Below, piece after piece: positions 6,249 through 23,203 of a stretch of 64,000 bases of DNA. Source of the stretch: Candidatus Firestoneibacteriota bacterium. GTDB lineage: Bacteria; Oederibacteriota; D2-FULL-39-29; JBBTED01. The first letter of the stretch is position 1. Every line of letters starts with the position of its first letter. Position numbers and translations under genes: made by a program. The notes under the pieces were generated by a model. It had not been told where the DNA came from. It made no database searches and was given only the letters and a program-made list of their open reading frames with translations. The stretch spans positions 37,651 to 101,650 of the forward strand of contig JBBTED010000027.1 in NCBI GenBank assembly GCA_038042445.1, read 5' to 3'.

Positions 6249-6308
6249 AGCAATGATTTAAAATTCATATACCTTTAAGTAAAGAACCCAGGATTAAAAC
6301 CAATTTAT

Positions 6309-7181: not shown

Positions 7182-7208
7182 ATATTCTAAATATTTATTG
7201 AATTTAAA

Positions 7209-7264: not shown

Positions 7265-7275
7265 AATTCACCGTC

Positions 7276-7911: not shown

Positions 7912-8354
7912 AGGACAGATATTTTATCTCCAGTTTTTATTTCGCCGCCTTGCAGTACTTTGGCAAATATACCTTCTTTTGGCATCACACAATCACCAAC
8001 AGCATAATATATAGCGCAGTGAGAATGACAAACCTTTCCAATTTGTGTAACTTCCAATAGAATATTTTCGCCGATTTGTATTTTGGTTCCAATTAAAAGA
8101 TCTTTTAAATTTATCCATTCTGTAGTGATATTTTCTGCAAAATCTCCGGGCTTTACTTGTAAACCCTTCTCAATTATTTTATTTATACTTTCTTGAGCAA
8201 GCAAGCTTATTTGCCTATGCCAATCACCTGAATGTGCATCTCCAACAATTCCAAAGTTTTCTTTAAGACAAGCAAAAGGAATATTTTGTTTTTTTTCGCC
8301 TTTATTTTTACTTATAGATATTGCAATTATACTACCTGTTTGTTCACAATTCAT
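7908..8354 (-). CDS. MOSC domain protein (MoCo sulfurase C-terminal-like)
   Basis: ISISKNKGEKK...GIVGDAHSGDWHRQISLL is a MOSC beta-barrel signature. The stop overlaps the mobA start. Confidence 0.7.
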   Translation of the reverse strand: MNCEQTGSIIAISISKNKGEKKQNIPFACLKENFGIVGDAHSGDWHRQISLLAQESINKIIEKGLQVKPGDFAENITTEWINLKDLLIGTKIQIGENILLEVTQIGKVCHSHCAIYYAVGDCVMPKEGIFAKVLQGGEIKTGDKISVL

Positions 8355-9987
8355 GACATTGCCTACATTCTTTTTTTGACATTTTTAAACGGACATCTTT
8401 ATGCTGGCCAAATTCATGACAACTTATACAATCCAAACCAGCTTCAAGATGTTTTAGATGCGGCATAATTTTATTTCCATATTTTACTGTTTCCGAAGGA
8501 ATTTTGATATTCAATTTTGAATGACACATAGTCATACAAAATCTTCCGTTAATCAGTATATTTTCATTCATAGAAGGTAATTCTTTTTTAAGTAAATTAC
8601 CTATTTTATCCAAAGATTTATTTGCTACCTGTAAAATCTGAACAGAATAATAGATATTATGCAAACCACGTTTTTCTGATATAAACTGTATATTGTATCG
8701 GACATCTGAAAGCAATGTATTAGCATTATTGAAATCCGTTGAATTTTTAGGAATGGATTTAACCAAATCTTCTGCAATTTTTGATTTTGAATTAATTTCA
8801 TCTAATGCATCATTTAAAATCTTTTTCCATTCTAATACCAAACCAGTATATTTTTCACCATGACATTTAACACATGCATCTTCTTTATATTTGTATGTAC
8901 TTCCATCAAATTTTGTGTTGCCATGAATTTGTTCTGAAATATGACAACCTACACAATCCACATTTGCAAGATACATAGCACTTGGCATATCTGGAACTCC
9001 TTTTGCACCTATACCTTTATAAATCTGCTGAACACCTGTATGTTTATCTGTATGACATTTAGCACAATTAAGAGAAGTCATTTCTTTTTTAGATATAGTA
9101 GTTATAGAATGCCTCATTTCCTTATGACAATGAAAACAAGCTACATTCCTTTTTGTGATATGCTGCTCATGAATAAATTTCAAATCATTGTATTTTTGCA
9201 GTTTCTCAGGCTGATTATGACAGGTGTAACATCTTTCCTGTGGAGCTTCACCATCCCCTTGAATAACATCTAAATGACACTTTTTACAACTCACATCTTT
9301 ACCTTTTGCTGAAACAAAATTTTTGTGATTATAAACTATATTCCCTATTGTAAAATCTGTTTCAGGAACTTTATGGCAAGAAATACATCCACCAATAGGA
9401 TTAATATCACGTGCCGTTTTCTTACCCTTAAAATGGCAAAGGTAACAGGTGTCCCATGTTACTTCAACATGTTTACCAACAACCATTTGTGAATGGCAAG
9501 AAGTACATCTAAGATGTCTACCACGACGTTCTTCAGTTAAATGATGCCTGTGGTTAAACATTATGCCTTTTTTTGTAGTAATTTTTCCTTCTAATAATCT
9601 GGTTGAATGACAACCTACCCTCAAACAAGAAGTATCTTCTATTTCAGCATAAGGTTTAGATGAATATGTCCGTGTGACATATTTGGCAACTTGTGATAAA
9701 GCCTGAAATTTTTTCCATAATATTGTTTTAGGTTCACCAGGTGGATAGTGACATTCTACACAAGCAACATTATTATGTTTTGAATTTTTCCATGCATCAT
9801 AATATGGTTTCATTATATGACAGGATTTACAAAAAGATGGAGTGGTAGAATATTTTGCCAACCCAAGTAAAATTACAACAAGTAATATTAATAATAAACC
9901 TATTAATTTAAAAAATCTTTTTTTAAAACTAATATACCATTTTTTATCTGGTGAAATTTCTATTCCTAAAAAAGAAAGTAAGTTCAT
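8344..9987 (-). CDS. Membrane-anchored multiheme cytochrome c (13 CxxCH plus a Cx4CH and a Cx3CH)
   Basis: N-terminal TM helix (LIGLLLILLVVILLGLA). I counted 13 CxxCH motifs (CKSCH, CVECH, CTSCH, CYLCH, CISCH, CKKCH, CYTCH, CFHCH, CAKCH, CVGCH, CVKCH, CISCH, CRQCH) plus CLRVGCH and CMTMCH. Confidence 0.85.
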   Translation of the reverse strand: MNLLSFLGIEISPDKKWYISFKKRFFKLIGLLLILLVVILLGLAKYSTTPSFCKSCHIMKPYYDAWKNSKHNNVACVECHYPPGEPKTILWKKFQALSQVAKYVTRTYSSKPYAEIEDTSCLRVGCHSTRLLEGKITTKKGIMFNHRHHLTEERRGRHLRCTSCHSQMVVGKHVEVTWDTCYLCHFKGKKTARDINPIGGCISCHKVPETDFTIGNIVYNHKNFVSAKGKDVSCKKCHLDVIQGDGEAPQERCYTCHNQPEKLQKYNDLKFIHEQHITKRNVACFHCHKEMRHSITTISKKEMTSLNCAKCHTDKHTGVQQIYKGIGAKGVPDMPSAMYLANVDCVGCHISEQIHGNTKFDGSTYKYKEDACVKCHGEKYTGLVLEWKKILNDALDEINSKSKIAEDLVKSIPKNSTDFNNANTLLSDVRYNIQFISEKRGLHNIYYSVQILQVANKSLDKIGNLLKKELPSMNENILINGRFCMTMCHSKLNIKIPSETVKYGNKIMPHLKHLEAGLDCISCHEFGQHKDVRLKMSKKECRQCHEL

Positions 9988-10027
9988 ATTTTAACAGTTT
10001 TTAAATTTTTCAGTGGGTGATTTCTTT

Positions 10028-10068
10028 CTAAAATCCCCCTTAGTCCCCCTTTTTCAAAGGGGGATTTA
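10028..10068 (-). terminator. Stem-loop aaatccccc...ccccctttttcaaagggggattt overlapping the stop of the 11-heme gene
   Basis: G/C-rich inverted repeat with a T-run. A similar motif (cccctcttttacaaagagggg) recurs at 28471-28491. Confidence 0.45.
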
Positions 10069-11908
10069 TTATTTTTTCATTATCAATTTTTTTTCCTGTA
10101 ATCCATTGCCAACTCATTGGATAGATTTCCGGGTCAAAAATTGTCCAGTAAAAATGCCAGATAATAATTGCAACAGTAGCAAGTATTGCTTCATAAAAAT
10201 GAATTAGTGTGGCTAAATCAGTAATCCATAATGGCAGATATTTTAAAGTTATATTTTCAAATAAAAGCAAAATTCCTGTTACTATCATTATAATAGAACC
10301 CCATATAAGTGCCCAATATTCAAATTTTTCCATATAATTGTACTCACGAAATTGTGGTTTTTCTTTACACAAACCAATATTATATCCAATAAATTTAAAT
10401 GCATCAGTGATATCTTTGAATACAGGAAATAATTGTGTTACTCTCTTTCTGCCTGCTTTTGTAAATACAAGATAAAAAACGTGGAATATTGCAAATAGAA
10501 TAAATATAAATGCTGTCCAGTGATGAATTTCACTCCTTATTTGTGAACCTTCCTCTAAAATTCTAAATGGATATGCCCACCAACTTTCAGGATATTTTAC
10601 TGCAAAACCAGTATAAGCAAGTACTGAAAAACAAATCAAAAGTCCAAAGTGTTGTATTCTTTCATTAATACTCATTCTTTTATCATTCGCTTCTTTTTTA
10701 CATTTTTTGTAATGTTCTCGTAAATTTTTTAAAAAATGAATTGCATTATGAAAAATCATACCACCAATTGTTAAAAGTATTAATGATATATAGAATATTT
10801 TAACATAATATATAATTAAATTTTTTTCTTTTGAATCTTTAGTATGTATAGAACCTGAAGCAAGCATTGCACCTGCACCAGGATGACATTTTCCACACGT
10901 CTTCGGTAGATTTACTTTATTTATGGAGGAAAGTTTATTATCTGACATCAAAATATCATGAAATCCATGACAAGAAGCACAATTAGCTACTCTTAAATCA
11001 CCAGCTTTACCTGATAATCCATGAAATGAATCTAAATATGTTTGAACTCTATCTGCAGGCAATCCAAATTTCGTAACAATTTTTTCAGAAGCATGACACC
11101 CTGAACAGGTTTTGGTTATTGCACCAATATATACAGATGATTCTTTGTCTTTAACAGCACGTATTGTATGTTCACCATGACAATCAATACATACTGGTGC
11201 TTCTTTAACACCTGCTTTTGAAACCACACCATGAATACTTCTTTCATATACTTTAAATACATTTTCATGACATTTACTACAAGTAACTGGAATATTCTTA
11301 TGAAATATTTTTGACATAGAGTTTGATGAACCATATATGTTGTGAGACCCATGACAATCAGTACATACTGCTGCATTCATTTCTCCATTTTTCAATGCCT
11401 GGCCATGAATACTGTTTCTATAAGATTTATATGGTTCCTTTTGTGTAAGGTGAAATTTTTCCATTTTGCCTGAATTCCCATGGCAGTGTGTACAAGTATC
11501 AGGAATGTTTTTATGATAAACCGGAGATTTTGGATTTCTGCTATTCAAAATAGTATGTGTGCTACCATGACAAGCTTTACAAGTAGCTGCTTCATTTATA
11601 CCTTTAAGCTGTGCTTTTCCATGATCACTATTTAAATAGATTTCTGATTCTATTCTATGGCAGTCTTTACAAGATACAGGTTTTAATTTTTCATTATGCG
11701 GCAATTCCTTAATATCACTATGGCAAGAAATACACAGATTATTTCCATGTATGGATTTTCCAAAAGCATTTGAATTAACCAATGGTGCGCCACTTTCTTT
11801 ATCTTTATGACACACCATACATTCTTCATTTTCCTGTGCATATAGCAACGAAGATACAAATATAAAAAAAATAAAAATCTTTGTTTTCACCCGAAAATCT
11901 CCCATTTT
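10040..11908 (-). CDS. CbcL-like fusion: periplasmic 11-heme cytochrome c plus C-terminal di-heme cytochrome b (FdnI/HydC-type) membrane domain
   Basis: 11 CxxCH motifs followed by four or more TM helices with conserved His (HFGLL..., HHWTAF..., HFYEAIL). The start is taken at the internal MGDFRVKTKIFIFFIF signal peptide (11908), because the upstream in-frame extension runs through repeat A1. Confidence 0.8.
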   Translation of the reverse strand, partial: KMGDFRVKTKIFIFFIFVSSLLYAQENEECMVCHKDKESGAPLVNSNAFGKSIHGNNLCISCHSDIKELPHNEKLKPVSCKDCHRIESEIYLNSDHGKAQLKGINEAATCKACHGSTHTILNSRNPKSPVYHKNIPDTCTHCHGNSGKMEKFHLTQKEPYKSYRNSIHGQALKNGEMNAAVCTDCHGSHNIYGSSNSMSKIFHKNIPVTCSKCHENVFKVYERSIHGVVSKAGVKEAPVCIDCHGEHTIRAVKDKESSVYIGAITKTCSGCHASEKIVTKFGLPADRVQTYLDSFHGLSGKAGDLRVANCASCHGFHDILMSDNKLSSINKVNLPKTCGKCHPGAGAMLASGSIHTKDSKEKNLIIYYVKIFYISLILLTIGGMIFHNAIHFLKNLREHYKKCKKEANDKRMSINERIQHFGLLICFSVLAYTGFAVKYPESWWAYPFRILEEGSQIRSEIHHWTAFIFILFAIFHVFYLVFTKAGRKRVTQLFPVFKDITDAFKFIGYNIGLCKEKPQFREYNYMEKFEYWALIWGSIIMIVTGILLLFENITLKYLPLWITDLATLIHFYEAILATVAIIIWHFYWTIFDPEIYPMSWQWITGKKIDNEKIINPPLKKGD

Positions 11909-11917
11909 ATTGTTTCT

Positions 11918-11973
11918 GTAGCTGCAAAGCAATAGCTTTGCTTTTTTTTTGCAGAGCTTCGCTCTGCCGCTAC
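11918..11973. repeat. Nested-palindrome repeat family A, short copy 1
   Basis: gtagctgcaaagcaatagctttgc ttttttttt gcagagcttcgctctgccgctac. Homologous cores are at 18543-18598, 23096-23151 and 30470-30525. Confidence 0.75.
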
Positions 11974-12014
11974 ACTGCCAACTGACCAAAATTTACAACT
12001 ATAAATATTCTTAC

Positions 12015-14759
12015 TTATTTATATGCAAATAGCATAGCATAAATAATCCATATTACCACGCTAAAACCAAGGACTAAAGCAGTCCAACCAAATATACGTA
12101 TTGCCCTTATAACAATCGGCTGATATGGTTCTACAAGATATTTTTCAAGTTCTCCACTTGCAACTAATTCTTCATATTCTTCAGGTCTGTCATTTTTTAA
12201 TTCTTCAACAGAAACACGACCTGTAAAAATACTGGTATCCATTGGAAATTTTTCCGGACGCCAGTGTGTATTAAAAAAATGCACTGTAAATATAAACCCT
12301 GCGGCAAGTAACGCCTCATCACTATGAATAATAGTTGCAACATTTATAAACCAACCTGGCAAAAACTGTGTAAAAAACTCTGAAAACCACAGAAAAACAC
12401 CTGTAAAACCAATAATAGCAATTCCCCAGAATACTGCAAAGTAATCAAATTTTTCCCAATATGTCCACCTTCCATATCTTGGCCTTTTTCCCAAACCCAA
12501 AAACCACTTTATGGATCCAATTAAATCCAGTAAATCTTTTTTTGTAGGAAGCATAGTGTTTGTTCCTGATAACAAATTTTTCCATGTTTTAAATTCTTTA
12601 CGTTTTTTTTGAAAAATATTAAAAAGATGCGTAAAGAAAATAATAAAAAGTAAAATTGCGGCAACACGATGTATATAACCTGCTGTTTCAAAACCACCGA
12701 GAAAATGCGATACAATTGATGACCATTTTGTATATGAGAATTTTAATGTCATACCTGTAAATGCCAGACTTATAAAACTCACAATCATTGTAATGTGTAA
12801 AATTCGTTCTAAACGTGAAAACCTCACAATCTGTTTTTCTGTTGAATATATATCTGCTTTTGGAAATTCCTTTTTATTTTTCATAGAACGTGAAAACCAT
12901 AAAAGCGTATGAACACCACTAAAAAAGAAAGTGGTGACAAGAAGAGTTGTCATCCCCCAAAAAACCCAGAAAAGATACGGATATTTTTTAGGGTCATGAT
13001 GTGTTGCATGTGTTAAATATCCTGCAAAACGTCTATTTGCACCTGAATGACATTTCTGACAAGTTTGGACAATATTCTTACGGCTTAAGTGCGAGTTTGA
13101 ATCAACAACAGATAAAATATCATGTGCCCCATGACAATCATAACATTTAGCTGTCTTTGTATAACCCAATTTCGAAATCTTGCCATGATATGTATCAAAA
13201 TATGTTTTGGCAATTTCCTCATGGCATTTTCCACACACATTCATAATATTAAGCTTAAAACCATCTTCTCCTGCCCGCCTAATAGTATGAGCAGTATGAC
13301 AATCCTTACACACAGGTAATTCCTTGTCTGTTTTATTATGCAATGGGGAATGAACACTCTGGACAAATTGTTCGTAGACACCATAATGACAACGCCCACA
13401 TGTTTCAGCAACCTTGTCTTTATGAATACTTGACCCAATATCACTATGTGGAAGTTCATGATGAGCTGTATGGCAATCCGAACAAGTTGCAGTAACAAGC
13501 AACCCACTTTTAAGAAGTCCCTTACCGTGAATACTCTCAGTGTAATTTTCAACAATTCTATGTTCTGTGCCAGTATATCGGATAGCTGATTTTTGTCCTG
13601 TTCTATGACACTTACCACAAAGATTTGGAACATTTAAAGGAAATATAGGTGATTTCGAATTTGTTTTTCCCATGATACCATGCGTTCCATGACATTCTTT
13701 GCAATTTGGAACATTTGGATCATTTTTAGCAAATAATTTTCCATGGATGCTATCTTTATATTCCTCAACAACTTCAGCATGACAATTTCCACAATCAACT
13801 TTTGTTTTTATACTTTCACAAGCACGATATTTAGAAGGATTCACATTTGAATGGCATTTACTGCAGGCAATTTTTGTGTGTTTAGAAGAAGTTAATTCCT
13901 GATAATTTACATAAAGAGAATGTCCATCTCTTGATGCTTTTAAATCCTGTTTTGAGTGACATTTTAGACAATCCTTATCAGCCATTCCCTCTTCATAAAA
14001 AACCTTACGCACTTTATGTGGCTGATGGCAATCTACACAAGCGGGTAAAACAGAATCCTCTTTTTCCCACAACTCACCTTTGATAATTTTTCTGTGTACA
14101 TCTTCAATTTGCGTATGGCATTTATAGCATGTTGAAGCAATATTTTTACGAGATATTGAAGAACGCAAATCAGTGTGAGGTAAAATAAAATGTGATGTAT
14201 GACACGATGTGCAAGTGGCAGTAACTGACAAACCCTTTTTTAGCAATCCTTCTCCATGAATACTCTCAGAATAATTCTCAAGAATTTTTGACTGATGAAT
14301 GTTGCGTTGACTTTGAACAGGAGCGCCTTCTTGATGACACTTTCCACAAACAAATGGCACTTTAATTGGTGATACTGCTGAGTTTTTATCCTTAACTTTT
14401 AATATATCGTGTGTTCCGTGACAATCTTGACAAAGCGGAGCCAATTTATCGCCTTTGGCAACTGCTTTTCCATGTAAGCTTTCAGAATATAATTTCTGTT
14501 GCTCTAAATGACAATTACCGCAACTAACTTTTAATGGTTTATCATGTGGAAAATCCTTCCCTTTTAGATCACTATGGCAGGAAATACATAGATTATTTTC
14601 ATGTATAGATTTTTCAAAAACATTTGAATTAACTAATGGTGCGCCACTTTCTTTATCTTTATGACACACCATACATTCTTCATTTTCCTGTGCCTGCAAA
14701 AACATTGGTACACAGCATAAAAGGAAAATTATACTTATTTTTTGTATTCGTGAGTTCAT
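12015..14759 (-). CDS. CbcL-like fusion: about 19-heme cytochrome c plus C-terminal di-heme cytochrome b membrane domain
   Basis: 19 CxxCH motifs counted. The C-terminal 300 aa is polytopic with His-containing helices. The N-terminal 45 aa are nearly identical to the downstream 11-heme paralog (AQENEECMVCHKDKESGAPLVNSN...). Confidence 0.8.
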   Translation of the reverse strand: MNSRIQKISIIFLLCCVPMFLQAQENEECMVCHKDKESGAPLVNSNVFEKSIHENNLCISCHSDLKGKDFPHDKPLKVSCGNCHLEQQKLYSESLHGKAVAKGDKLAPLCQDCHGTHDILKVKDKNSAVSPIKVPFVCGKCHQEGAPVQSQRNIHQSKILENYSESIHGEGLLKKGLSVTATCTSCHTSHFILPHTDLRSSISRKNIASTCYKCHTQIEDVHRKIIKGELWEKEDSVLPACVDCHQPHKVRKVFYEEGMADKDCLKCHSKQDLKASRDGHSLYVNYQELTSSKHTKIACSKCHSNVNPSKYRACESIKTKVDCGNCHAEVVEEYKDSIHGKLFAKNDPNVPNCKECHGTHGIMGKTNSKSPIFPLNVPNLCGKCHRTGQKSAIRYTGTEHRIVENYTESIHGKGLLKSGLLVTATCSDCHTAHHELPHSDIGSSIHKDKVAETCGRCHYGVYEQFVQSVHSPLHNKTDKELPVCKDCHTAHTIRRAGEDGFKLNIMNVCGKCHEEIAKTYFDTYHGKISKLGYTKTAKCYDCHGAHDILSVVDSNSHLSRKNIVQTCQKCHSGANRRFAGYLTHATHHDPKKYPYLFWVFWGMTTLLVTTFFFSGVHTLLWFSRSMKNKKEFPKADIYSTEKQIVRFSRLERILHITMIVSFISLAFTGMTLKFSYTKWSSIVSHFLGGFETAGYIHRVAAILLFIIFFTHLFNIFQKKRKEFKTWKNLLSGTNTMLPTKKDLLDLIGSIKWFLGLGKRPRYGRWTYWEKFDYFAVFWGIAIIGFTGVFLWFSEFFTQFLPGWFINVATIIHSDEALLAAGFIFTVHFFNTHWRPEKFPMDTSIFTGRVSVEELKNDRPEEYEELVASGELEKYLVEPYQPIVIRAIRIFGWTALVLGFSVVIWIIYAMLFAYK

Positions 14760-15001: not shown

Positions 15002-17146
15002 TTATGTTTTATTTTTAAAAGCTAAAATATAAACATAAAAAGTTGCGCCCTTTCCTGTTTCAGATTCTACATCTATATGCCCTTCATGCCTTCTTATTAT
15101 AGAATAAACTGTTGCAAGTCCTAAACCACTACCTCTTGATTTTGTTGTCCAATAAGGATCAAATATTTTTGTTATATTCTCTTTTGCTATGCCAACTCCC
15201 TCATCTTTTATCGCTATTTTTACATATTCACCATCTTTAATTAATAAATCCCCTTTAATGTCAATATTCTCTGCATTAATCTGCACCACACCGCCTTCAG
15301 GCATAGATTCTACTGCATTTATAATTAAATTATTAATTACCTGAATCATCTGCCCTTCATCAAATTCAACTGACCATAGATTATCAGAAATTATAGTATC
15401 AAATTTTACCTTAGAATTTCTTGTCAAATATTTAACTGTATCATTTAATATTTTTGAAATTGACAAAACTTTTTTTATTGATTCTCCGCCCCTAGCAAAA
15501 CTTGATAATTGTTTCGTTAATTCTTTTGCCTGCAAAGACGCTTTTTCAGCATCAGCCAGTAATTCACCCAATTCCCCAGGATTTTGCAAATGCCTCTTCG
15601 CTAAAGAAATATTCCCTAAAATTGAAGTCAACATATTATTAAAATCATGGGCAATACCACCTGCAAAAACTCCTATTGATTCTACTTTTTGTGACTTTAC
15701 AAACTCTATTTCTATTTTTTTCTGCTGTTCTTTTATTAAAAGAACATTTTGAATGTTAGATATCGCCGCTTCAAGTGAATCTTTTAATAAATTTAACCCA
15801 TTAAGTTCATCTTTATAAAACATATCCCCAGAAAATTTATTACCTAATAAAATACAACCTTTTATTCCCCCATTTTTATTTACAGCAATCATTACCGCGT
15901 AATCCCCTGCATTCATTCCATCAAATATTTTCATTTCTGAGTCAGTAAGCACTCTTCCTATTTCTATTTTTTTCTGAAGTTCATCTCTTATTATTATTTC
16001 TTCTTTACCCTCAAAACAATTCAAAAATACACTTTGATTGCTTTTTGTCTCCTTCATTGTATAAGATTTTTTATTTGAATCTTTACATTCAAATTCTCCT
16101 TCTATTATTGCTCCTGTTTTTCCAAATATTCTGATTGAACCTTTTTCTACAAGAAAAATCTGAGGTATTTCCTTTAATAAATATTCAACAAGTTGGTTTT
16201 CATCTAATATACTTCTAATCTTTGATGTAAGCAATTGAATTGATTTAACAAAATCAATATTTTTTGCATAAAACTTTGCATTTATAAATGTACGAATTTT
16301 GCCACTAAATACTTTCAGGAATATAAAAGTAACAAATGTAATACAAGCTAAAGTTGGAAGGAAAAATGTCCTATGAAAATGAGAGGAAGGAAGTAGTATA
16401 AATACTATAATTATATTTAGTATTACCGTAGATGATAATATTGCCAAATATTCCAATATTTTTCGCAATAAATATTGCAGGTTCACCATTTTTATGCGGA
16501 TAAATGCATAAGCAATAGCTATAGTGTAAAATAAACTTGTTAAGTTCCCAAATGGATAAAATTCTATACCAAATGTAGGCAAAAAATTTGTTACTCCTCC
16601 CAATGCGCCTAAAAATGTTCCCCAGAAAATATATTTATATTGTTGTCTTTTTTGTCCTGAAGAAATCTTTATTAATTTAAAGATTAAAACTTGTGCATAG
16701 GTTATGTAAAAAGAGAAAACTACACTATATATCAAATCCCCTATATTTACCAATGGATAATATCCCCAGAAATATTTTTTTAACTCATTACTTAAAATAT
16801 TGCATTTAAAGTGTAACAATAAAAATAAAAAACTAAAAAAATAAGCAAGATAAAGCAAAGTTTTATTTAATTTGGTTTTTATGTTTGCAACATTATAAAC
16901 AAAATGAAAGGTTGTAGAAAAAATAAATATTGTTCCTGAAATTAATATATGATTATATTTAACTGCTAACAAATATTCAGAAGTATTATACAACAAAAAG
17001 AAACCTAAATTCCATACAGCCATTGATAAATTCCAGAAAATATAAGCCAGAGTAATATTTTTATTTCTATTATTAATTAATATAAGTAATATTAGAGATA
17101 TATTAAGAATAAATGCTACTAATGGCTGTATTGAATAAATTGTCAT
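15002..17146 (-). CDS. Sensor histidine kinase with a large N-terminal polytopic (7TM-type) sensor domain
   Basis: About 8 TM helices in the first 290 aa. The H-box is GGIAHDFNNMLTSILGNISLA. The HATPase motifs are NLIINAVESM, DEGVGI, GSGLGLATV. Confidence 0.8.
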   Translation of the reverse strand: MTIYSIQPLVAFILNISLILLILINNRNKNITLAYIFWNLSMAVWNLGFFLLYNTSEYLLAVKYNHILISGTIFIFSTTFHFVYNVANIKTKLNKTLLYLAYFFSFLFLLLHFKCNILSNELKKYFWGYYPLVNIGDLIYSVVFSFYITYAQVLIFKLIKISSGQKRQQYKYIFWGTFLGALGGVTNFLPTFGIEFYPFGNLTSLFYTIAIAYAFIRIKMVNLQYLLRKILEYLAILSSTVILNIIIVFILLPSSHFHRTFFLPTLACITFVTFIFLKVFSGKIRTFINAKFYAKNIDFVKSIQLLTSKIRSILDENQLVEYLLKEIPQIFLVEKGSIRIFGKTGAIIEGEFECKDSNKKSYTMKETKSNQSVFLNCFEGKEEIIIRDELQKKIEIGRVLTDSEMKIFDGMNAGDYAVMIAVNKNGGIKGCILLGNKFSGDMFYKDELNGLNLLKDSLEAAISNIQNVLLIKEQQKKIEIEFVKSQKVESIGVFAGGIAHDFNNMLTSILGNISLAKRHLQNPGELGELLADAEKASLQAKELTKQLSSFARGGESIKKVLSISKILNDTVKYLTRNSKVKFDTIISDNLWSVEFDEGQMIQVINNLIINAVESMPEGGVVQINAENIDIKGDLLIKDGEYVKIAIKDEGVGIAKENITKIFDPYWTTKSRGSGLGLATVYSIIRRHEGHIDVESETGKGATFYVYILAFKNKT

Positions 17147-18447
17147 AAGTATTTTTTTAATAATAATACTGCATTTACACCTGAAAATCCAGAGGAATTT
17201 TGCATTGCAATATTTACTTCTTTTTTTCTTGCTTTATTTGGCACATAATCCAAATCACATTCTGGGTCAGGATATTCATAATTTATAGTTGGTGGAATAA
17301 TATTATCTTCTATTATAAGACAATTTGTTATAGTCTGAAAAGCGCCTGCTGGTCCTAAAGAATGGCCTATCATTGATTTTAAACCACTTATTGGCACTTT
17401 ATATGCATATTCTCCAAATGCTTTTTTAATAGCAAGTGTTTCTGTTTTTTCATTTAATTGTGTAGAACTTCCATGTGCCTGTATATAATCAACATTTTCA
17501 GGTTTAATATTTGCATTTTTCATTGCTATTTTCATTGCTCTTGCTGATTGCACCCCATCTGGAGCAGGAGCTGTCATATGATACGCATTACAAGTAGTTC
17601 CATAACCAATAACTTCAGCATATATATGTGCATTTCTTTTTATAGCATGTTCTAATTCTTCCATAATAACTATACCTGAGCCTTCTCCCATAACAAATCC
17701 ATCTCTTTCTTTATCAAAAGGTCTTGAAGCTTTTTCCGGCTCATTATTTCTCGTAGACAATGCTTTTATTGCGCAAAATGAATACATTGTTAAAGGAGCA
17801 ATTGGAGCCTCTGTTCCACCTGCAAAAATAATATCTGCAATTCCTTGTTGTATAGATGTATATGCATTACCTATAGCTACTGTTCCTGCTGTGCATCCTG
17901 TTGATATTACATTGTTATATCCAACTATGCCTAAGTCTATTGAAATCTGGCCAACTGAAGCGCAACAAAATACTGCAATCGTAGTAAAAGTGCTTACTCC
18001 TCTTAAACCATTCAATCTATAGTTTGTAAATTGTTTCTCTGCAAAATCCATTCCGCTTACTGCAATACCAATAACTAACCCAATTCTTTCAGGATCTTCG
18101 TTTTTTATATTTAATTTTGCATCTATTAAAGCCAATTTAGCAGCACCCATAGCATATTGTGTAGATAAATCAGTTCTTCTAATTTGCTTTGGATCCATAT
18201 ATTTTTTGGGATCAAAATTATCTATTTCAGCAGCTATTTGCGAAGGATGTTGGGAAGCATCAAATCTCGTAATTTTGCGTGTCCAAGATTTACCTGCTAT
18301 TGTATTTTCCCAGAATTCCTGTTTTCCTATACCACTTGGAGCAACAACTCCAAGCCCTGTTATAACAACTCGTCTTTTATTTTCTTTAGTATCATTCATT
18401 TTATAATAAATTAAGTCGTTCTGATTCGCCTGTAACAAATTAGCCAA
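17143..18447 (-). CDS. Beta-ketoacyl-ACP synthase (KAS II / FabF-like)
   Basis: RRVVITGLGVVAPSGIG N-terminus. The active-site Cys region is CASVGQISIDLGIVGY and the His motifs are HGSSTQ and GHSLG. The true start may be the internal MNDTKENKRRVV (18399). The stop overlaps the kinase start (ATGA). Confidence 0.8.
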   Translation of the reverse strand: MANLLQANQNDLIYYKMNDTKENKRRVVITGLGVVAPSGIGKQEFWENTIAGKSWTRKITRFDASQHPSQIAAEIDNFDPKKYMDPKQIRRTDLSTQYAMGAAKLALIDAKLNIKNEDPERIGLVIGIAVSGMDFAEKQFTNYRLNGLRGVSTFTTIAVFCCASVGQISIDLGIVGYNNVISTGCTAGTVAIGNAYTSIQQGIADIIFAGGTEAPIAPLTMYSFCAIKALSTRNNEPEKASRPFDKERDGFVMGEGSGIVIMEELEHAIKRNAHIYAEVIGYGTTCNAYHMTAPAPDGVQSARAMKIAMKNANIKPENVDYIQAHGSSTQLNEKTETLAIKKAFGEYAYKVPISGLKSMIGHSLGPAGAFQTITNCLIIEDNIIPPTINYEYPDPECDLDYVPNKARKKEVNIAMQNSSGFSGVNAVLLLKKYL

Positions 18448-18454
18448 AATAAAT

Positions 18455-18650
18455 TTCGCTACGCAATAATTGTCATCCTGAGCGTTAGTGAAGGATCTCG
18501 TCTTGTAACAGATTAGCCATTCTAAAAATACACATTATTATTGTAGCTGCAGAGCAAAGCTCTGCTAAAAAACAGCAAAGCTTTCGCTTTGCGGCTACAT
18601 AAACCATACAAAATCCATTAAATCTTAGAATGGCCAACCTATTACCTCGT
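18455..18650. mobile_element. Composite MITE-like element: family A core (18543-18598) nested inside outer inverted repeats gtaacagattagccattctaa / ttagaatggccaacctattac, plus a fragment of the 14860 palindrome
   Basis: Outer TIR is 18506-18526 versus 18626-18646. The inner core is gtagctgcagagcaaagctctgc...gcaaagctttcgctttgcggctac. Near-identical composites are at 23046-23197 and 30423-30563 (the latter inverted). Confidence 0.7.
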
Positions 18651-18722
18651 CTTTATATAGATTCTTTATTTCATTCAGAGTGACAAAAAAGGTTGTTGAA
18701 AAACTTCCACTCCATTTGCATC

Positions 18723-19307
18723 TTACACATCTTTAACACCAGTTTTAAATATTGGAATAGGGAAAAATGCCCATACTTCTTTTTTGTATTTTAGATATTC
18801 TTCACCAAATTTTTTAATTAGTGCTTTTTCCTCAAAAATAAATCTTAAAATAATAAGTGGAACAAATGTAATTACAATCAAAAAAAATGAATAATAAGCA
18901 TTTGCTATTAAAGGTAGACCCAAAATTTCACAAAATAAAAACAAATAATGTGGATGCCTCATATATTTATAAGGACCTTTTTTAATTAAAGGATGGACAT
19001 CTCTTATTTCTATTTCTACAGTCCAGTATTTATCTAAAGTCTTTATTGCCCAAATAGAAAGCATCCAACCCAGAATATACAAAACAAAAGCAATACCAGA
19101 AATATAATAATTTATATTTCTTTCAATAATAAAAAATTCTATAGGCGAAACAAAAATTGGTAATATATAAAAAATATATATTGATTTAGTTATCCATTGA
19201 AATGAAATTTCCCCTTCTATTTTTTTGATTTTATGTATTTTAGAAGTAATAAAGAACTTATTTATAAATACAAGAATTGCGAAAATTAAATAAATATTTT
19301 CAAACAT
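18723..19307 (-). CDS. ICMT/PEMT-family membrane methyltransferase (isoprenylcysteine carboxyl / phospholipid methyltransferase-like)
   Basis: GPYKYMRHPHYLFLF...FEEKALIKKFGEEYLKYKKEV is the C-terminal SAM-binding signature of PF04191/PF04140. It has five TM helices. Confidence 0.65.
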   Translation of the reverse strand: MFENIYLIFAILVFINKFFITSKIHKIKKIEGEISFQWITKSIYIFYILPIFVSPIEFFIIERNINYYISGIAFVLYILGWMLSIWAIKTLDKYWTVEIEIRDVHPLIKKGPYKYMRHPHYLFLFCEILGLPLIANAYYSFFLIVITFVPLIILRFIFEEKALIKKFGEEYLKYKKEVWAFFPIPIFKTGVKDV

Positions 19308-19316
19308 TTAGTTTAT

Positions 19317-20684
19317 TTATTTTGGAGCTTTTGCCTTTGGATAAGAATAAGCTACATAATGCGAAGATAAATTTGCTATTATAGGAAATATTCTCTCATT
19401 TAACCTCACATTATTTTCATTCCAATTATTATACAATTTCATAAGCCTGTTAAAAACAGTATTTAATTCAAATAGTTCCTGAAAAGCCCAGCAATAACCA
19501 TTTTCCAAATCCTTTTCAGACATATTTTTTGGTTTATAACATACATGACAACAATCAAAATATGCCCAACTTTTATTTAATATTCTTTTTTCTTTTTCAA
19601 GTTTAAAAAATAATTGTGTTCCAGGCAAAGGTGTAAGAATATTTACAAAACAATTGCCAATACCAGAATCTTTTATAAAATTAACTGTTCTTTCAAATAC
19701 ATTTATATCATCATCATCAAACCCAAATATAAATGAACCAAGAATAATAATACCTTTTGATTGAATTTTTCCTATTGCTTTATAATATAAATCAACTTTG
19801 TATTGATTGCCTTTATGAACTTCTGCTAAATTTTTTTGGTTAATTGATTCAAACCCTATTAAAATACTTAAACAACCACTTGCTACTAATAAATCAAGCA
19901 ATTCATCATCTTCATATATCTCAATGGTTGCCTGTATTGTATAAGGTGTTTTAAGTGGTATCATTGCTTTTAAAAGTTCTTTTGCTCTTTTTTTATCAAC
20001 TAAAAAATTATCATCACAAAAGAAAATCAATTTTTTATCAATTGAATTTACAAATTCTATTTCTTTTATTACTTTTTCAACTGATTTACATCTGTATTTT
20101 TTACCAAAATATGTCTGAACAGAACAAAATTCGCAATTATAAGGACATCCGCGTGTTGTTTGAAGTATATGAAAATTATATTTTTTATTATTTAATAAAT
20201 CGTATCTGGGAATAGGAGATAAATTTATATCAGGTTTTTCAGGAGATTCGTATATTTTTTTTAGATTATTATTTTTAAAATCTTCTATTACCTGCTTCCA
20301 TATATTTTCTGCTTCTCCTTTTACAATAGTATCTGCATGTAAAAGCCCTTCTTCTGGAAGCATAGAAGTATGAATTCCACCAATTACAACTTGGACATTT
20401 CTTTTTCTGAATTCATCAGCAATTTCATAGGCACGAGTAGCCAAAGATGTATTGGCACTTATTCCAACTAAATCAACTTTTTCATCAAAGTTAATATCCT
20501 CTATGTTTTCATCTTTGATAATTATATTTACATCTTCTGGTGTAAGCGCTGCTATAACAGGTATTGAAGCTATCATAGCACTGTATTTTTTTACTCCAAA
20601 AACAATTGATTGAAATTGTCCTCCCCAGTTTTCTAATTCTGTATCAGCAGTTTTTCGTTTGGGAACAATCAGCTTTAAAATCAC
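19317..20684 (-). CDS. B12-binding (cobalamin) radical SAM protein
   Basis: The N-terminal B12-binding-like domain is followed by TTRGCPYNCEFCSV (CxxxCxxC radical SAM cluster). Confidence 0.8.
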   Translation of the reverse strand: MILKLIVPKRKTADTELENWGGQFQSIVFGVKKYSAMIASIPVIAALTPEDVNIIIKDENIEDINFDEKVDLVGISANTSLATRAYEIADEFRKRNVQVVIGGIHTSMLPEEGLLHADTIVKGEAENIWKQVIEDFKNNNLKKIYESPEKPDINLSPIPRYDLLNNKKYNFHILQTTRGCPYNCEFCSVQTYFGKKYRCKSVEKVIKEIEFVNSIDKKLIFFCDDNFLVDKKRAKELLKAMIPLKTPYTIQATIEIYEDDELLDLLVASGCLSILIGFESINQKNLAEVHKGNQYKVDLYYKAIGKIQSKGIIILGSFIFGFDDDDINVFERTVNFIKDSGIGNCFVNILTPLPGTQLFFKLEKEKRILNKSWAYFDCCHVCYKPKNMSEKDLENGYCWAFQELFELNTVFNRLMKLYNNWNENNVRLNERIFPIIANLSSHYVAYSYPKAKAPK

Positions 20685-21274
20685 TCTACATCCTTTCTTG
20701 CTATTGCAATTTTAGGAAAAAATCTATTCACCTCTTGTTTATAACTTATATATTTTTCTTTTAATGTTTCAAGCATTGCTTTTTCTTCTATGATTGAACG
20801 TAAAATAATTATTGGAAAATATGTAATTAAAAATATAGTGAGAAAATAATAGGAATTTGGAATCAAAGTAATTCCTAATACTTCAAGTAAGTGAAAAACA
20901 TTATTTGGGTGTCTCATATATTTATATGGACCATTTTTTATTAACTCGTGATTATCTCGTATTTCAATATCCACACTCCAGTATTTCCCAAGCGAATTAA
21001 ATGCCCACTGCCTTCCAAAAAGACCTATAGAATATAGCATAATTCCTGCACAACTTACAAACAAATTCATATTTCTTTTTGCAACAAAATATTCTATAAA
21101 ACTACCAAAAAGTATAATAAGGTAGACATAAAATATATATTTGGATGTCCATTTAGCAATAACCTTGCCTTTGAGTTTTTCGGATTTCAAAGTTTTTTTT
21201 CTGATTGTGGACCTTATATGAAATGTAACTGCAAAAAATATAATATAAAATATTGTGAAATAAATGTTATTCAT
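20681..21274 (-). CDS. Second ICMT/PEMT-family membrane methyltransferase paralog
   Basis: GPYKYMRHPNNVFHLLEVLG...IEEKAMLETLKEKYISYKQEV. It is overlapped by the rSAM start (4-nt overlap). Confidence 0.65.
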   Translation of the reverse strand: MNNIYFTIFYIIFFAVTFHIRSTIRKKTLKSEKLKGKVIAKWTSKYIFYVYLIILFGSFIEYFVAKRNMNLFVSCAGIMLYSIGLFGRQWAFNSLGKYWSVDIEIRDNHELIKNGPYKYMRHPNNVFHLLEVLGITLIPNSYYFLTIFLITYFPIIILRSIIEEKAMLETLKEKYISYKQEVNRFFPKIAIARKDVE

Positions 21275-21306: not shown

Positions 21307-21373
21307 GGTAGCCGCAGGCTTTAGCCTGCGAAAAAATTGTAAAAAATACCGCAAGCTAAAGCTTGCGACTACC
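21307..21373. repeat. Nested-palindrome repeat family B, copy 2
   Basis: ggtagccgcaggctttagcctgcg aaaaaattgtaaaaaata ccgcaagctaaagcttgcgactacc. Confidence 0.8.
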
Positions 21374-21412: not shown

Positions 21413-21871
21413 CTAAATGACTCCTTCCAATTTGTTCTTTAAACCAAGCAAAACATTTCTTGTAAGCTTGTCAATTGCGGGTTTTGCTATGAATTTGGAT
21501 AAAATCCAGCCTAAAACAGGTGGATTTAAGCTTAATCTGTGTGTTATTGTTAATTTCGTGCCTTCAGGAACTTCTTCAAATAGCCACTCGATTTTCATTC
21601 CTTTTAATCTGCCTTCAATTTGTTCAAATTCTATTGTTTTATTGATATTAAATTTTACTTTTGACTTCCACTTCATTATTTTACCTTTTATTTCTGCAAC
21701 TCTTTCAACAATCATTCCACCATCTTCTGTTTTTATAAGCTTTGATGGTTTATACCCCGGTATATAGGTATGAGAGTTTTCAATATCCTGTGCAATTTTA
21801 TATACTTCAGGTAAATTTCTTTTTATTATAATTGTATCTTTTGTAATCATATTATTGCTACCACTCTGCAC
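21413..21871 (-). CDS. SRPBCC-family (polyketide cyclase/dehydrase-like, START fold) protein
   Basis: Size and sequence pattern of polyketide_cyc2. It overlaps the downstream cyclase ORF at the N-terminus, so the true start may be the internal MITKD. Confidence 0.5.
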   Translation of the reverse strand: MQSGSNNMITKDTIIIKRNLPEVYKIAQDIENSHTYIPGYKPSKLIKTEDGGMIVERVAEIKGKIMKWKSKVKFNINKTIEFEQIEGRLKGMKIEWLFEEVPEGTKLTITHRLSLNPPVLGWILSKFIAKPAIDKLTRNVLLGLKNKLEGVI

Positions 21872-22614
21872 CAGCCGGCACTTGCTTTTTCAATTTTAAC
21901 AGGAAAACAAATTATTTTAAAGCCGAAAGGTTTGGGAATCTTATCCAAATTAGCAAGTTTTTCTATATGACAGTATTCAATTTTTTTCCCAACAAAATGT
22001 GCAGGAAATATAAAAGTATTATCTTTGGTTTTAAGAAAATCCTGCAACATATTAATTGCAGGTCTGTCAAAACCCCATGCATCTATCCCAAGTATTTTAA
22101 CACCTTGTTTTAAAATATATTCTGTCCCTTCGGCACTCATTCCAGAATGTGCTGAAAAATAATTATCTTTTTCAAAATATTTGTCTGCACCTGTCATTAT
22201 CAATACAATATCATAGGGCTTTATTTTATAGTTTATTTTATCTAATGCTTTTTGCACATCTATCTGCAAAATTGCATCACCTTGTTGTTTATGCCTAAAA
22301 TCAAGAAGGACACCATCATTATAACACCATTCTAAAGGAATCTCATCAACTGTTATTGCTTTTTTACCATTAATCTGCGAAGTAAAATGCCAAGGAGCAT
22401 CAAGATGTGTTCCTGAATGTGTATCTAATATTATTTCTTCATTTGCAAGACCTCTACCATCAGGAAAATCTTTTTCAGTTATTTGAGTTTTAAAAATATT
22501 ACTCGCAGCAGCACTAAGATTTTTTGCACCCTCTATATGATTAAAATATTTTATTTTGGGTGACTCAGGCTCCGGTGTATTATTTTTAATAGGTAAACTC
22601 AAGTCAATAAGCAT
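21847..22614 (-). CDS. Cyclase-family protein (PF04199, arylformamidase/kynurenine formamidase-like)
   Basis: The HSGTHLDAPWHF motif (HxGTHxDxPxH) is characteristic of the putative cyclase family. Confidence 0.7.
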   Translation of the reverse strand: MLIDLSLPIKNNTPEPESPKIKYFNHIEGAKNLSAAASNIFKTQITEKDFPDGRGLANEEIILDTHSGTHLDAPWHFTSQINGKKAITVDEIPLEWCYNDGVLLDFRHKQQGDAILQIDVQKALDKINYKIKPYDIVLIMTGADKYFEKDNYFSAHSGMSAEGTEYILKQGVKILGIDAWGFDRPAINMLQDFLKTKDNTFIFPAHFVGKKIEYCHIEKLANLDKIPKPFGFKIICFPVKIEKASAGWCRVVAII

Positions 22615-22622
22615 TTTATTTT

Positions 22623-23027
22623 TTACAAATCTTTTTTATGAACCATAAATGGTTTTTGACCTACAAACTCACCATTTGCAAATATCCTGAATGCATATTT
22701 GCCTGGCTCATTAAAAACTATGCCGTGCAAATTAAATACTAATTCATAACTTGCCAGTTTATCAACTACATCAATTTCAGGTATTTCTGTCTTAGCAACA
22801 ACTATATCTGTATCAAAATTAACGAATTCTAAAGCAAATTTATATATTCCCAATGCATCAGTAAATTTTACAAACACACTCAAAGATGGATGTGCGCAGG
22901 GAAAAGAAGATGCTGAGATATTTTCAAATAATCCAATTAAACTCTTCTTATTTGTTCCAACTTCAGTAATTACTGTATCGCATATAAGCATTGCATTCAA
23001 ATGCGGTTTTAGATTTGAAGTATTCAT
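22623..23027 (-). CDS. Hypothetical protein
   Basis: Intact ORF in an operon-like arrangement. No recognisable motif. Confidence 0.4.
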   Translation of the reverse strand: MNTSNLKPHLNAMLICDTVITEVGTNKKSLIGLFENISASSFPCAHPSLSVFVKFTDALGIYKFALEFVNFDTDIVVAKTEIPEIDVVDKLASYELVFNLHGIVFNEPGKYAFRIFANGEFVGQKPFMVHKKDL

Positions 23028-23045: not shown

Positions 23046-23197
23046 CTGTTACATTTAAAGTAACATTAGCCATTCTAAGAATATACATTATTATTGTAGC
23101 TGCAGAGCAAAGCTCTGCTAAAAACCAGCAAAGCTTTCGCTTTGCGGCTACATAAACTATACAAAATCCATTAAATATTAGAATGGCTAACCTATTA
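23046..23197. mobile_element. Composite MITE-like element (family A core 23096-23151 plus outer ttagccattctaa / ttagaatggctaa TIR), copy 3
   Basis: Same architecture and over 90% identity to 18506-18646. Confidence 0.7.
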
Positions 23198-23203
23198 CCA
23201 TTT

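Follow-up and report, generated by a model that had tools for sequence, protein, structure and literature searches.

A ketosynthase, membrane methyltransferase and sensor kinase gene cassette of uncultivated bacterial phyla that may encode a lipophilic signal and its receptor

Background

In the Vibrio systems LuxM/LuxN, AinS/AinR and CqsA/CqsS, the gene for a synthase of an acyl-derived signal lies beside the gene for a polytopic, often hybrid, kinase that binds the signal in its membrane domain. We analyzed a locus of related layout in a 64,000-nucleotide stretch of DNA from Candidatus Firestoneibacteriota bacterium (GenBank assembly GCA_038042445.1, contig JBBTED010000027.1, positions 37,651 to 101,650 of the forward strand), referred to below as the window. 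Here a FabF-derived ketosynthase (KAS) gene overlaps the gene for a sensor histidine kinase with a polytopic, putatively seven-transmembrane (7TM), domain, and genes for two membrane methyltransferases of the ICMT/PEMT family and for a B12-binding radical S-adenosylmethionine (SAM) enzyme (rSAM) lie close by. The reading we favor, tentatively, is that the cassette encodes both the synthase and the receptor of a lipophilic signal, a methylated compound derived from a fatty acid or polyketide.

The likeness to the Vibrio pairs lies in a synthase gene that adjoins the gene for a polytopic membrane kinase; LuxN and CqsS, both mentioned in PMC13220807, are hybrid kinases with polytopic sensors, as are the closest kinases of the type I cassettes described below. 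However, the Vibrio synthases are not homologous to the cassette enzymes, the cassette sensor combines HisKA_7TM and GAF domains, and the cassette is known from its genes alone. In Ralstonia, one operon, phcBSRQ, encodes both the methyltransferase PhcB, which makes methyl 3-hydroxymyristate or methyl 3-hydroxypalmitate, and the kinase PhcS, which senses the product (PMC13220807). SAM-dependent methylation of an acid derived from fatty acid synthase is common to that system and to the pathway predicted here, as is the placing of synthase and kinase in one operon, but phcBSRQ has no ketosynthase, cyclase, SRPBCC protein or rSAM. PhcB is a soluble class I methyltransferase and not an ICMT-type membrane enzyme.

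Lipid-like signals are also made by a ketosynthase acting with an aromatase or cyclase, as in the dialkylresorcinols of DarABC/PauR and the photopyrones of PpyS/PluR (PMC13220807). The receptors of these systems are LuxR solos, not kinases, and the StlD/DarB model NF005293 scored 25.3 bits (cutoff 450) on the ketosynthase of one of our related cassettes, L088. The DarABC and PpyS ketosynthases are FabH-like. In the DesK/DesR-Des system of Bacillus subtilis, a multi-pass membrane kinase, DesK, with five transmembrane segments, is encoded beside a lipid-modifying enzyme. DesK is a HisKA_3-type kinase with an adjacent regulator gene, whereas the window kinase belongs to the HisKA type, lacks a regulator gene next to its own and is coupled to a ketosynthase.

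HpnP/HpnR, HpnJ, the TIGR04072 family and the enzymes of glycerol dialkyl glycerol tetraether (GDGT) synthesis resemble the window rSAM in joining B12-binding and radical SAM domains, and act on lipid carbons as is predicted here; a DUF4070 tail is found in HpnP as well. TIGR04072 members sit beside FabF paralogs, but the hopanoid, ladderane and GDGT rSAM clusters carry no 7TM kinase. The PrsK/PrsR pair of the PEP-CTERM/exosortase system consists of a 7TM-GAF kinase and a sigma-54-dependent response regulator, a pairing found also in the type II cassette L088. The L088 kinase scored 192.7 bits on PrsK (cutoff 300) and its regulator 412.9 on PrsR (cutoff 502.6); no exosortase or PEP-CTERM genes were found nearby. 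For the window kinase, the 97.9 bits obtained with the PrsK model TIGR02916, against the same cutoff of 300, rule out an assignment as PrsK.

The single domains are already known, as is the principle by which a biosynthetic operon carries a two-component sensor of its own. A full-text literature search on DUF4070, HisKA_7TM, clusters of ICMT with B12 rSAM, and Firestonebacteria found no published description of the cassette, and the rSAM, the ICMT proteins, the kinase and the cassette as a whole fall outside every curated family. The nitrogenase-paralog/rSAM clusters reported in Elusimicrobia (Meheust et al., bioRxiv 10.1101/765248) were considered and set aside: this gene set is not described there, and no nif-like genes occur at our loci.

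Gene organization of the locus and of related cassettes

The locus comprises the following genes (aa, amino acids).

15002-17146, minus strand: sensor histidine kinase, core part; 714 aa (Pfam, ortholog alignment)
17143-18399 (open reading frame, ORF, to 18447), minus strand: FabF-derived ketosynthase, core part; 418 aa (TIGR03150)
18723-19307, minus strand: ICMT/PEMT-family membrane methyltransferase ICMTb; 194 aa (Pfam)
19317-20684, minus strand: B12-binding radical SAM enzyme rSAM-A; 455 aa, GTG start, CPYNCEFC (Pfam)
20681-21274, minus strand: ICMT/PEMT-family membrane methyltransferase ICMTa; 197 aa (Pfam)
21413-21871, minus strand: SRPBCC (polyketide cyclase/dehydrase, lipid-binding START-like) protein (PF03364 51.7 bits, PF10604 31 bits)
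21847-22614, minus strand: Cyclase-family (KynB/isatin-hydrolase type) metal-dependent hydrolase; 255 aa (PF04199 120.9 bits)

Every ORF that a first-pass annotation of the window had called on the minus strand is present. That annotation described a non-standard, lipid-type biosynthetic cluster in which the ketosynthase stop overlaps the kinase start and the rSAM gene lies between two ICMT-like genes, all with 4-nt overlaps. The ketosynthase/kinase overlap stands, with ATGA in the junction sequence. ICMTa and rSAM-A likewise share GTGA, but rSAM-A and ICMTb are separated by 9 nt.

Directly upstream of ICMTa, on the same strand, are the SRPBCC and Cyclase genes, followed by one for a DUF6941 protein. 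The hydrolase bears the metal motif HSGTHLDAPWH, as do kynurenine formamidase and isatin hydrolase, and its top relatives in the Protein Data Bank (PDB) are the isatin hydrolases 4J0N and 5NNB. The SRPBCC gene likely starts at the ATG at 21850, where it would share ATGA with the cyclase stop.

The search for related loci started from the rSAM or the ketosynthase and never from the kinase; three ketosynthase clusters were looked up. The comparative sample consists of 14 distinct loci, of which 13 are cassettes and one, L090, is an exception. Their gene orders are as follows (MITE, miniature inverted-repeat transposable element).

Type I, window: Cyclase-SRPBCC-ICMTa-rSAM-ICMTb-[MITE]-KAS-kinase
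Type I, L001, Elusimicrobiota: window order without the MITE; kinase with receiver domain
Type I, L092: receiver regulator-Cyclase-SRPBCC-FadL-like channel-ICMT-ICMT-KAS-kinase; no rSAM
Type I, L093: Cyclase-SRPBCC-ICMT-KAS-kinase; no rSAM
Bridge, L162: sigma-54 activator-Cyclase-KAS-SRPBCC-SRPBCC-ICMT-7TM-GAF kinase; no rSAM
Type II, L002, L004, L007, L009, L088, L089 and L091: [Sigma54_DBD protein]-sigma-54 activator-KAS-rSAM-B (HpnR-like)-rSAM-C-ICMT-rSAM-A-(7TM protein)-7TM-GAF kinase, with variations
Type III, L005, Spirochaetaceae: 7TM-PAS kinase divergent from rSAM-A-FeeM-rSAM-B-methyltransferase
Exception, L090: four tandem rSAM-A paralogs with ABC-transporter genes around; no ketosynthase, no kinase

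An Elusimicrobiota metagenome-assembled genome (L001) repeats the window order at 69-80 % protein identity with unrelated flanks. An acyl-building enzyme is present in all 13 cassettes, as a divergent FabF paralog in 12 and as FeeM, an N-acyl amino acid synthase, in L005. Each of the 13 has a methyltransferase (ICMT-type in 10), and a HisKA_7TM kinase gene lies in or beside the operon in 13 of the 14 distinct loci. The predicted constant parts are thus an acyl-ACP-using enzyme (ACP, acyl carrier protein), a methyltransferase and a HisKA_7TM kinase. The coupling of ketosynthase to kinase that the first-pass annotation pointed out is real and conserved in close relatives: the ATGA overlap occurs in the window, L001, L092 and L093 (4/4 close cassettes), whose ketosynthases are 67-82 % identical.

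The remainder of the gene content varies, from 0 to 4 or 5 rSAM genes and from 0 to 2 each of ICMT and SRPBCC genes, which is a pattern of small-molecule diversification. Cyclase orthologs hold the equivalent position in L001, L092, L093 and L162, and SRPBCC orthologs are found in L001, L092 and L093, with two copies in L162. The Cyclase and SRPBCC genes thus form part of the core of the type I cassettes, and the unit is larger than was first described. The ICMT-rSAM-ICMT trio, on the other hand, did not hold up as a conserved unit. The closest relatives have ICMT-ICMT (L092) or one ICMT (L093, L162) and no rSAM; only in the window and L001 is the rSAM gene flanked by both ICMT genes, and the sandwich is best read as a lineage-specific state. 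The flanks are unrelated in every locus and the loci are labeled as belonging to different phyla, and the cassette therefore travels as one unit. The window locus is, on this comparison, one putative version of a modular, horizontally mobile cassette, and its description as a non-standard, lipid-type biosynthetic cluster is supported.

Two of the type II loci call for comment. L091 (GCA_041862095.1) is labeled Lokiarchaeia, yet its sigma-54 activator and complete type II cassette make it probable that a bacterial contig was mis-binned. Inside the L002 cassette lies a gene for a Y1 transposase (5575-6258).

Genes for outer-membrane-type proteins were found in three cassettes.

L002, 3151-4101: outer-membrane-type protein
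L009, 5340-6266: outer-membrane-type protein
L092, 6272-7627: outer-membrane-type protein, a FadL/Toluene_X channel

The 316-aa protein of L002 and L009 matches no Pfam family, and has a signal peptide and a C-terminal Phe; we infer that it is a beta-barrel. These two loci are also the two type II cassettes without an ICMT gene.

The sensor kinase

The window kinase has a polytopic 7TM domain, a divergent GAF-like middle, HisKA and HATPase_c. The last two clear their Pfam cutoffs. HisKA_7TM (PF16927) scored 19.2 bits, below the cutoff of 28.6, and 31.1 and 67.0 bits in the orthologs of L092 and L162. The window and L162 kinases align end to end at 30 % identity (E 2e-73). Since the orthologs pass the model and the alignment to the L162 kinase is full, homology to the HisKA_7TM family appears clear. 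At least five strongly hydrophobic segments are seen by hydropathy within residues 1-280, and the standalone 7TM protein of L007 matches the kinase N-terminus in all 12 ketosynthase-bearing cassettes, the window included (tblastn). The window kinase has no receiver domain, whereas its three closest orthologs are hybrid kinases with a C-terminal receiver. A protein search with the kinase N-terminus returned only 5 matches, a low yield that is probably due to the choice of candidates by shared short words, and no relative was among the 600 pattern matches of a metagenome scan with the kinase sensor region.

The ketosynthase

The window ORF reaches 18447; the GenBank protein, MEK6645694.1, is 418 aa long and annotated FabF, and the ATG at 18399, which gives this length, is the likely start. 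The protein matches Pfam ketoacyl-synt (164 and 118 bits), can be aligned end to end with B. subtilis FabF (4LS5) and keeps its Cys-His-His triad (STGCTAG, AHGSST and KSMIGHSLG in that alignment). It clears the FabF equivalog TIGR03150 narrowly (523.5 bits against 493.75), as does the L088 ketosynthase (494.0).

It departs from FabF, however, at two motifs. In place of the acyl-pocket motif SPFF[VI]PMMIxNMAAGQ it carries STFTTIAVFCCASVGQ, and its gating loop reads GFSGVNA instead of GFGGHNA (FabF: GFGG(H/T)N); the GFGGHN loop holds the gating phenylalanine of FabF. The changed motifs are common to about two dozen clusters with 56-82 % identity to the window ketosynthase. Ordinary FabFs start at about 56 % identity and below, and those of Pelosinus, Sporomusaceae and L014 retain the canonical pocket and loop. 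All seven type II ketosynthases, listed here, depart further: they have lost the gate Phe of the GFGG loop, and their triad consists of Cys-His-Gln, which is unusual among FabF-like enzymes.

L002, 1733-3064: Cys-His-Gln triad
L004, 9400-10680: Cys-His-Gln triad
L007, 3085-4329: Cys-His-Gln triad
L009, 3970-5241: Cys-His-Gln triad
L088, 4079-5335: Cys-His-Gln triad
L089, 1702-3003: Cys-His-Gln triad
L091, 2815-4074: Cys-His-Gln triad

A small neighbor-joining tree with few outgroups unites the cassette ketosynthases. Around the window ketosynthase the housekeeping fab context (acpP-fabF, fabD/G/H) is absent, and no ACP gene was found in the window or at any cassette locus; the control FabFs in L014 and L075 come directly after acpP. 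We conclude that the ketosynthase is probably a dedicated FabF paralog which, because the cassette has no ACP of its own, would draw on the housekeeping ACP pool of the cell. A type II polyketide synthase, with KS-alpha, chain-length factor and dedicated ACP, was rejected: there is a single ketosynthase and no ACP, and the actinorhodin ketosynthase (1TQY) scores below FabFs. When metagenomes were scanned for the motif region of the type I ketosynthase, 68 loci came up, all of them distant (55 % identity or less over 88 aa) and none cassette-type.

The methyltransferases

ICMTa and ICMTb scored 56.1 and 66.1 bits on the ICMT Pfam model (cutoff 24), and 53.5 and 53.2 on PEMT (cutoff 25). Both are of a size for five transmembrane segments. 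They align with the Methanosarcina ICMT 4A2N over residues 2-189 and 7-183 (ICMTa E 1.5e-14) and have the RHP and EE..L motifs of the SAM site. From this full-length match they are genuine ICMT/PEMT membrane methyltransferases, as the first-pass annotation had them, and not NnrU-like proteins. Their best NCBIfam match is the isoprenylcysteine O-methyltransferase NF040696, with scores (81.6 and 66.7 bits) well under its cutoff of 160.

The two are 45 % identical to each other. ICMTa, with RHPNN as a variant of the RHPxY motif, belongs to an a-type lineage; it shares 56-68 % identity with the lone ICMT of L093 and with the ICMT that comes first in L001 and L092. ICMTb has the canonical RHPHY, belongs to a b-type lineage and is 60-66 % identical to the second ICMT of L001 and L092. 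The two genes are, by these comparisons, old paralogs with separate orthologs in L001 and L092.

The radical SAM enzyme

The rSAM matches Radical_SAM (64.8 bits, cutoff 29.5), B12-binding PF02310 (37.5, cutoff 32.1) and, in its tail, DUF4070 (25.2, cutoff 22). The single cluster motif, C180-x3-C184-x2-C187, has cysteines that are invariant in 31 orthologs. With CxxxCxxC and an N-terminal B12-binding Rossmann domain, the protein has the predicted features of class B. It reached no NCBIfam cutoff: BchE 109.9 (cutoff 481), HpnJ 113.9 (577.6), HpnR 65.5 (650), PhpK 103.3 (600), the ladderane-type TIGR04072 86.9 (360) and AprD4 72.9 (500). Since all family scores lie below cutoff, the enzyme is not placed with BchE or another cofactor family.

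The AlphaFold 2 model (mean confidence, pLDDT, 93.7) has as its closest solved fold AprD4 (PDB 6FD2; Foldseek E 1.9e-22, template-modeling score 0.72-0.75, 18 % identity), a 1,2-diol dehydratase that is not known to need cobalamin. Next are MgmA (9CCB, E 5.5e-19), the glutamine C-methylase of methyl-coenzyme M reductase, then TsrM, CysS, TokK and OxsB; MgmA, TsrM, CysS and TokK are cobalamin-dependent methylases. AprD4 and MgmA are also the top PDB sequence matches, but their substrates, an aminoglycoside and a protein, are unrelated to the cassette context. No Tes/GDGT-MAS entry was among the structure matches.

About 65 ortholog clusters share at least 48 % identity with the rSAM, and below this lies a larger family with other contexts: none of 77 loci with rSAM homologs of <46 % identity has a nearby ICMT or 7TM kinase gene. 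Within the cassettes, the rSAM is present in all seven of type II and in two of five of type I (L162 counted in), and thus seems to be an optional, accessory tailoring enzyme. Paralogs in tandem were seen in L090 (the four rSAM-A genes span 7094-12858), and a second contig (9723 bp; P0008, P0009 and P0011) holds three rSAM-A paralogs.

Transcription signals and the MITE

In five of the seven type II cassettes, a TGGCAC-N5-TTGC site was found at most 100 nt upstream of the first operon gene. These sigma-54-type sites match 9 to 11 of the 11 consensus positions; at the background rate found in these sequences, a binomial test gives P ~8e-10. Another site of this kind directly follows the kinase gene, ahead of genes for a small Fis-type helix-turn-helix (HTH) protein and a PilZ protein, or of a receiver gene.

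L088, 12836-13588: second sigma-54-type site and downstream genes
L091, 12133-13026: second sigma-54-type site and downstream genes
L002, 11767-12383: second sigma-54-type site and downstream genes
L089, 12746-13506: second sigma-54-type site and downstream genes

The genes behind this site are possible output genes of the system. A sigma-54 activator gene is present in eight loci, and in six of these the activator is a response regulator encoded beside the operon. The activator of L007 has no receiver domain, and that of L093 is further off on the opposite strand. No convincing sigma-54 promoter was found upstream of the window operon or in L001. In addition, proteins of 353-376 aa in L004 (5349-6410), L007 (13197-14327) and L088 (570-1685) match only the DNA-binding end of sigma-54 (RpoN model 84.6 bits, cutoff 277) and may be cassette-specific sigma-54 paralogs.

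The other elements within and beside the window locus are these.

18505-18645, no strand: MITE-like repeat between ICMTb and ketosynthase; 141 bp, 21-nt terminal inverted repeats
21348-21369, minus strand: terminator-like hairpin and T-run between the SRPBCC and ICMTa genes (consensus scan)
22623-23027, minus strand: DUF6941 protein; 134 aa (PF22091 76.2 bits)
23058-23198, no strand: second copy of the MITE, oriented as the copy at 18.5 kb
30423-30563, window: third copy of the MITE

A MITE had been proposed between ICMTb and the ketosynthase, and this was borne out: a 141-bp element whose 21-nt ends are inverted repeats occurs three times in the window in near-identical form, compared with 0 matches in shuffled sequence. 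Each copy holds a terminator-like hairpin (GCAAAGCGAAAGCTTTGC followed by a T-run) and a promoter-like TTAGCA-17-TACAAT. At the same junction in L001 there is no insert, and ICMTb directly adjoins KAS. Recombination between the copies at 18.5 and 23.1 kb, which share one orientation and enclose the segment from DUF6941 to ICMTb, could delete this segment. The hairpin at 21348-21369 may be a partial transcription stop inside the cluster. Counts of hairpins and promoter-like sites were not above shuffle expectation, and such sites are hence weak evidence.

Predicted function

The gene set points to a lipophilic, acyl-derived, methylated small molecule that would be made at the membrane, and the invariant, coupled 7TM-GAF kinase says that the cassette needs a membrane sensor of its own. 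In the pathway we propose, the FabF-derived ketosynthase would take acyl-ACP and malonyl-ACP from the housekeeping fatty acid synthase to form a beta-keto-acyl or short polyketide-extended chain, which the KynB-type metallohydrolase and the SRPBCC protein would release, dehydrate or cyclize. The two ICMT-type enzymes would then O-methylate the chain in the membrane, most plausibly at the carboxylate, to give a neutral, membrane-permeant product. In the window version the rSAM would further modify an unactivated carbon, most likely by C-methylation. The kinase, translationally coupled to the ketosynthase, would detect the product in the membrane through its 7TM domain, and the cassette would amount to a self-made lipid signal with its receptor, comparable to LuxM/LuxN, CqsA/CqsS and PhcB/PhcS.

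A signal is favored because the kinase is invariant and coupled in loci that were never retrieved through it, and because FeeM replaces the ketosynthase in L005 while tailoring content varies. It is favored also because the sigma-54 layout is autoregulatory, with PilZ or receiver genes following the kinase, because the outer-membrane channels of three cassettes fit the passage of a hydrophobic molecule, and because the cassettes have no acyltransferase or head-group genes. A bolder proposal would make these loci an unrecognized lipid-type cell-cell signaling family that is widespread in uncultivated phyla (Firestonebacteria, Elusimicrobiota, Nitrospirota, Omnitrophota and Spirochaetota). The signal would be made by the FabF-derived ketosynthase and ICMT-type methyltransferases, diversified by B12-radical SAM enzymes, cyclase and SRPBCC proteins into lineage-specific 'dialects', and received by the HisKA_7TM-GAF kinase, often via a sigma-54 activator. 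We regard this as possible but doubtful.

Several points weigh against a signal. All function is assigned from sequence and synteny in 14 loci, a small sample to which both metagenome scans added no locus, and the product, its release and its binding by the kinase are predictions. No cassette enzyme is homologous to a known autoinducer synthase, and a kinase beside lipid enzymes equally resembles a membrane-homeostasis circuit of the DesK type. The window version has no response regulator, sigma-54 promoter or exporter, and the MITE with its terminator-like hairpin parts the ketosynthase-kinase pair from the methyltransferases. Acceptors of the ICMT family are diverse (carboxylate, phosphate, amine, thiol) and carboxyl O-methylation is a guess here. 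Cobalamin use by the rSAM is likewise a prediction, and its nearest solved relative, AprD4, is a dehydratase not known to need cobalamin.

The alternative that survives best extends the idea of the first-pass annotation, a membrane-lipid tailoring cluster. The enzymes would carry out mid-chain C-methylation and head-group or carboxyl methylation, and the kinase would read the state of the membrane and adjust expression, in the way that DesK/DesR controls the Des desaturase. ICMT and PEMT are integral membrane enzymes that act on lipids, B12-type rSAMs modify unactivated lipid carbons (hopanoid methylases, GDGT ring synthase, GDGT methylases), a FabF-like ketosynthase with an intact Cys-His-His triad would feed acyl-ACP pools, and a polytopic membrane kinase is well placed to sense bilayer properties. 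Even so, nothing points to bulk membrane lipid: genes for acyltransferase, ACP, PlsX/Y/C, desaturase or head-group synthesis occur in 0 of the 14 loci. The rSAM is dispensable in the closest relatives, the kinase dimerization domain is HisKA and not HisKA_3, and an accessory trait is suggested by the patchy occurrence in different phyla between unrelated flanks. The FeeM swap, the outer-membrane channels and the PilZ or receiver outputs would also be unexpected for bilayer homeostasis, and we consider membrane tailoring a serious rival but the less likely reading.

The product could also be a specialized metabolite without a signaling role (a pigment, an antibiotic or a protective lipid of the alkyl-pyrone or alkyl-resorcinol type, for example), with a minimal set of ketosynthase, cyclase, SRPBCC protein and O-methyltransferase to make it and the kinase as an environmental regulator only. 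The combination of ketosynthase, SRPBCC 'polyketide cyclase' and 'cyclase' recalls the logic of aromatic polyketides and dialkylresorcinols (DarABC, PMC13220807), tailoring content is variable, and control by sigma-54 and enhancer-binding proteins is common for conditionally expressed operons. Such a product seems unlikely, since chain-length factor, ACP, ketoreductase and thioesterase are absent, as is any resistance or efflux gene, and a purely environmental regulator would not usually keep its translation coupled to a biosynthetic enzyme in different phyla. Moreover, one sensor-domain family beside very different enzyme sets suggests that the kinase reads something shared, the product.

Much less probable is the maturation of a lipidated peptide or protein, in which the ICMTs would, like eukaryotic ICMT, methylate a lipid-modified Cys peptide at its C-terminal carboxylate and the B12-rSAM would C-methylate it in the manner of peptides that are made on ribosomes and modified after translation (RiPPs). 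Protein-S-isoprenylcysteine O-methyltransferase is the best NCBIfam match of both methyltransferases, and several rSAM matches are to RiPP methylases (ApyD, rSAM_ocin_1), but both ICMT scores are far under the 160-bit cutoff and no cassette has a precursor peptide, protease, prenyltransferase or peptide exporter. The conserved small ORFs of the type II cassettes are Fis-type HTH proteins, and the ketosynthase would be left without a role. Finally, chance adjacency of a housekeeping FabF to functionally unrelated neighbors, to which the FabF equivalog score, the GenBank annotation and the interruption by MITE and hairpin might lend some color, is largely refuted by synteny and scarcely credible, since order and coupling are kept across phyla with unrelated flanks, the motifs depart from canonical FabF, and acpP, fabG and fabD are not nearby, unlike in the control loci.

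Candidate phyla that are known from metagenomes alone have hardly been explored for chemical communication or specialized lipid chemistry. Should the proposed signal-receptor pair be real, it would represent a new autoinducer class, in which B12-radical SAM enzymes diversify what a ketosynthase and an ICMT-type methyltransferase make. It would also suggest a type of ligand for the large, uncharacterized HisKA_7TM sensor family that includes PrsK, and would supply a physiological context for bacterial ICMT homologs and for an uncurated B12-rSAM family. If membrane tailoring proved correct instead, the locus would encode a compact, kinase-controlled pathway to methylated lipids, of relevance to methyl-branched lipid biomarkers. 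Under either reading, the comparative map yields 5-7 genes suited to heterologous expression.

Neighboring genes and other features of the window

The DUF6941 stop lies only 8 nt upstream of the cyclase start, and the gene is for this reason probably co-transcribed with the cassette. No DUF6941 homolog was found in L001-L087, and its membership of the cassette is doubtful. One flank of the unit consists of the housekeeping genes ctpA, M23 peptidase, ftsX and ftsE, and the opposite flank of multiheme cytochromes. Across the 64 kb, no fab, pls or sigma-54 genes were detected. The sole match in an anti-phage defense scan was the generic rSAM model PDC-M51A (56.8 bits). Rfam detected no riboswitch or other RNA element in the cluster; its matches in the window, both elsewhere, are a 6S RNA (34124-34302, minus strand; RF00013, 97.7 bits) and one tRNA (58326-58398, minus strand).

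The cytochrome flank (8344-14759) holds three large multiheme c-type cytochromes in a row, and two of these, at 10040-11989 and 12015-14759, include a fused membrane domain of the cytochrome b type (Ni_hydr_CYTB). A FAD_oxidored (PF12831) gene at 34350-35544 is broken up: one of its two overlapping ORFs matches the N-terminal half of the model and the other the C-terminal half, which points to a frameshift, a pseudogene or an assembly error.

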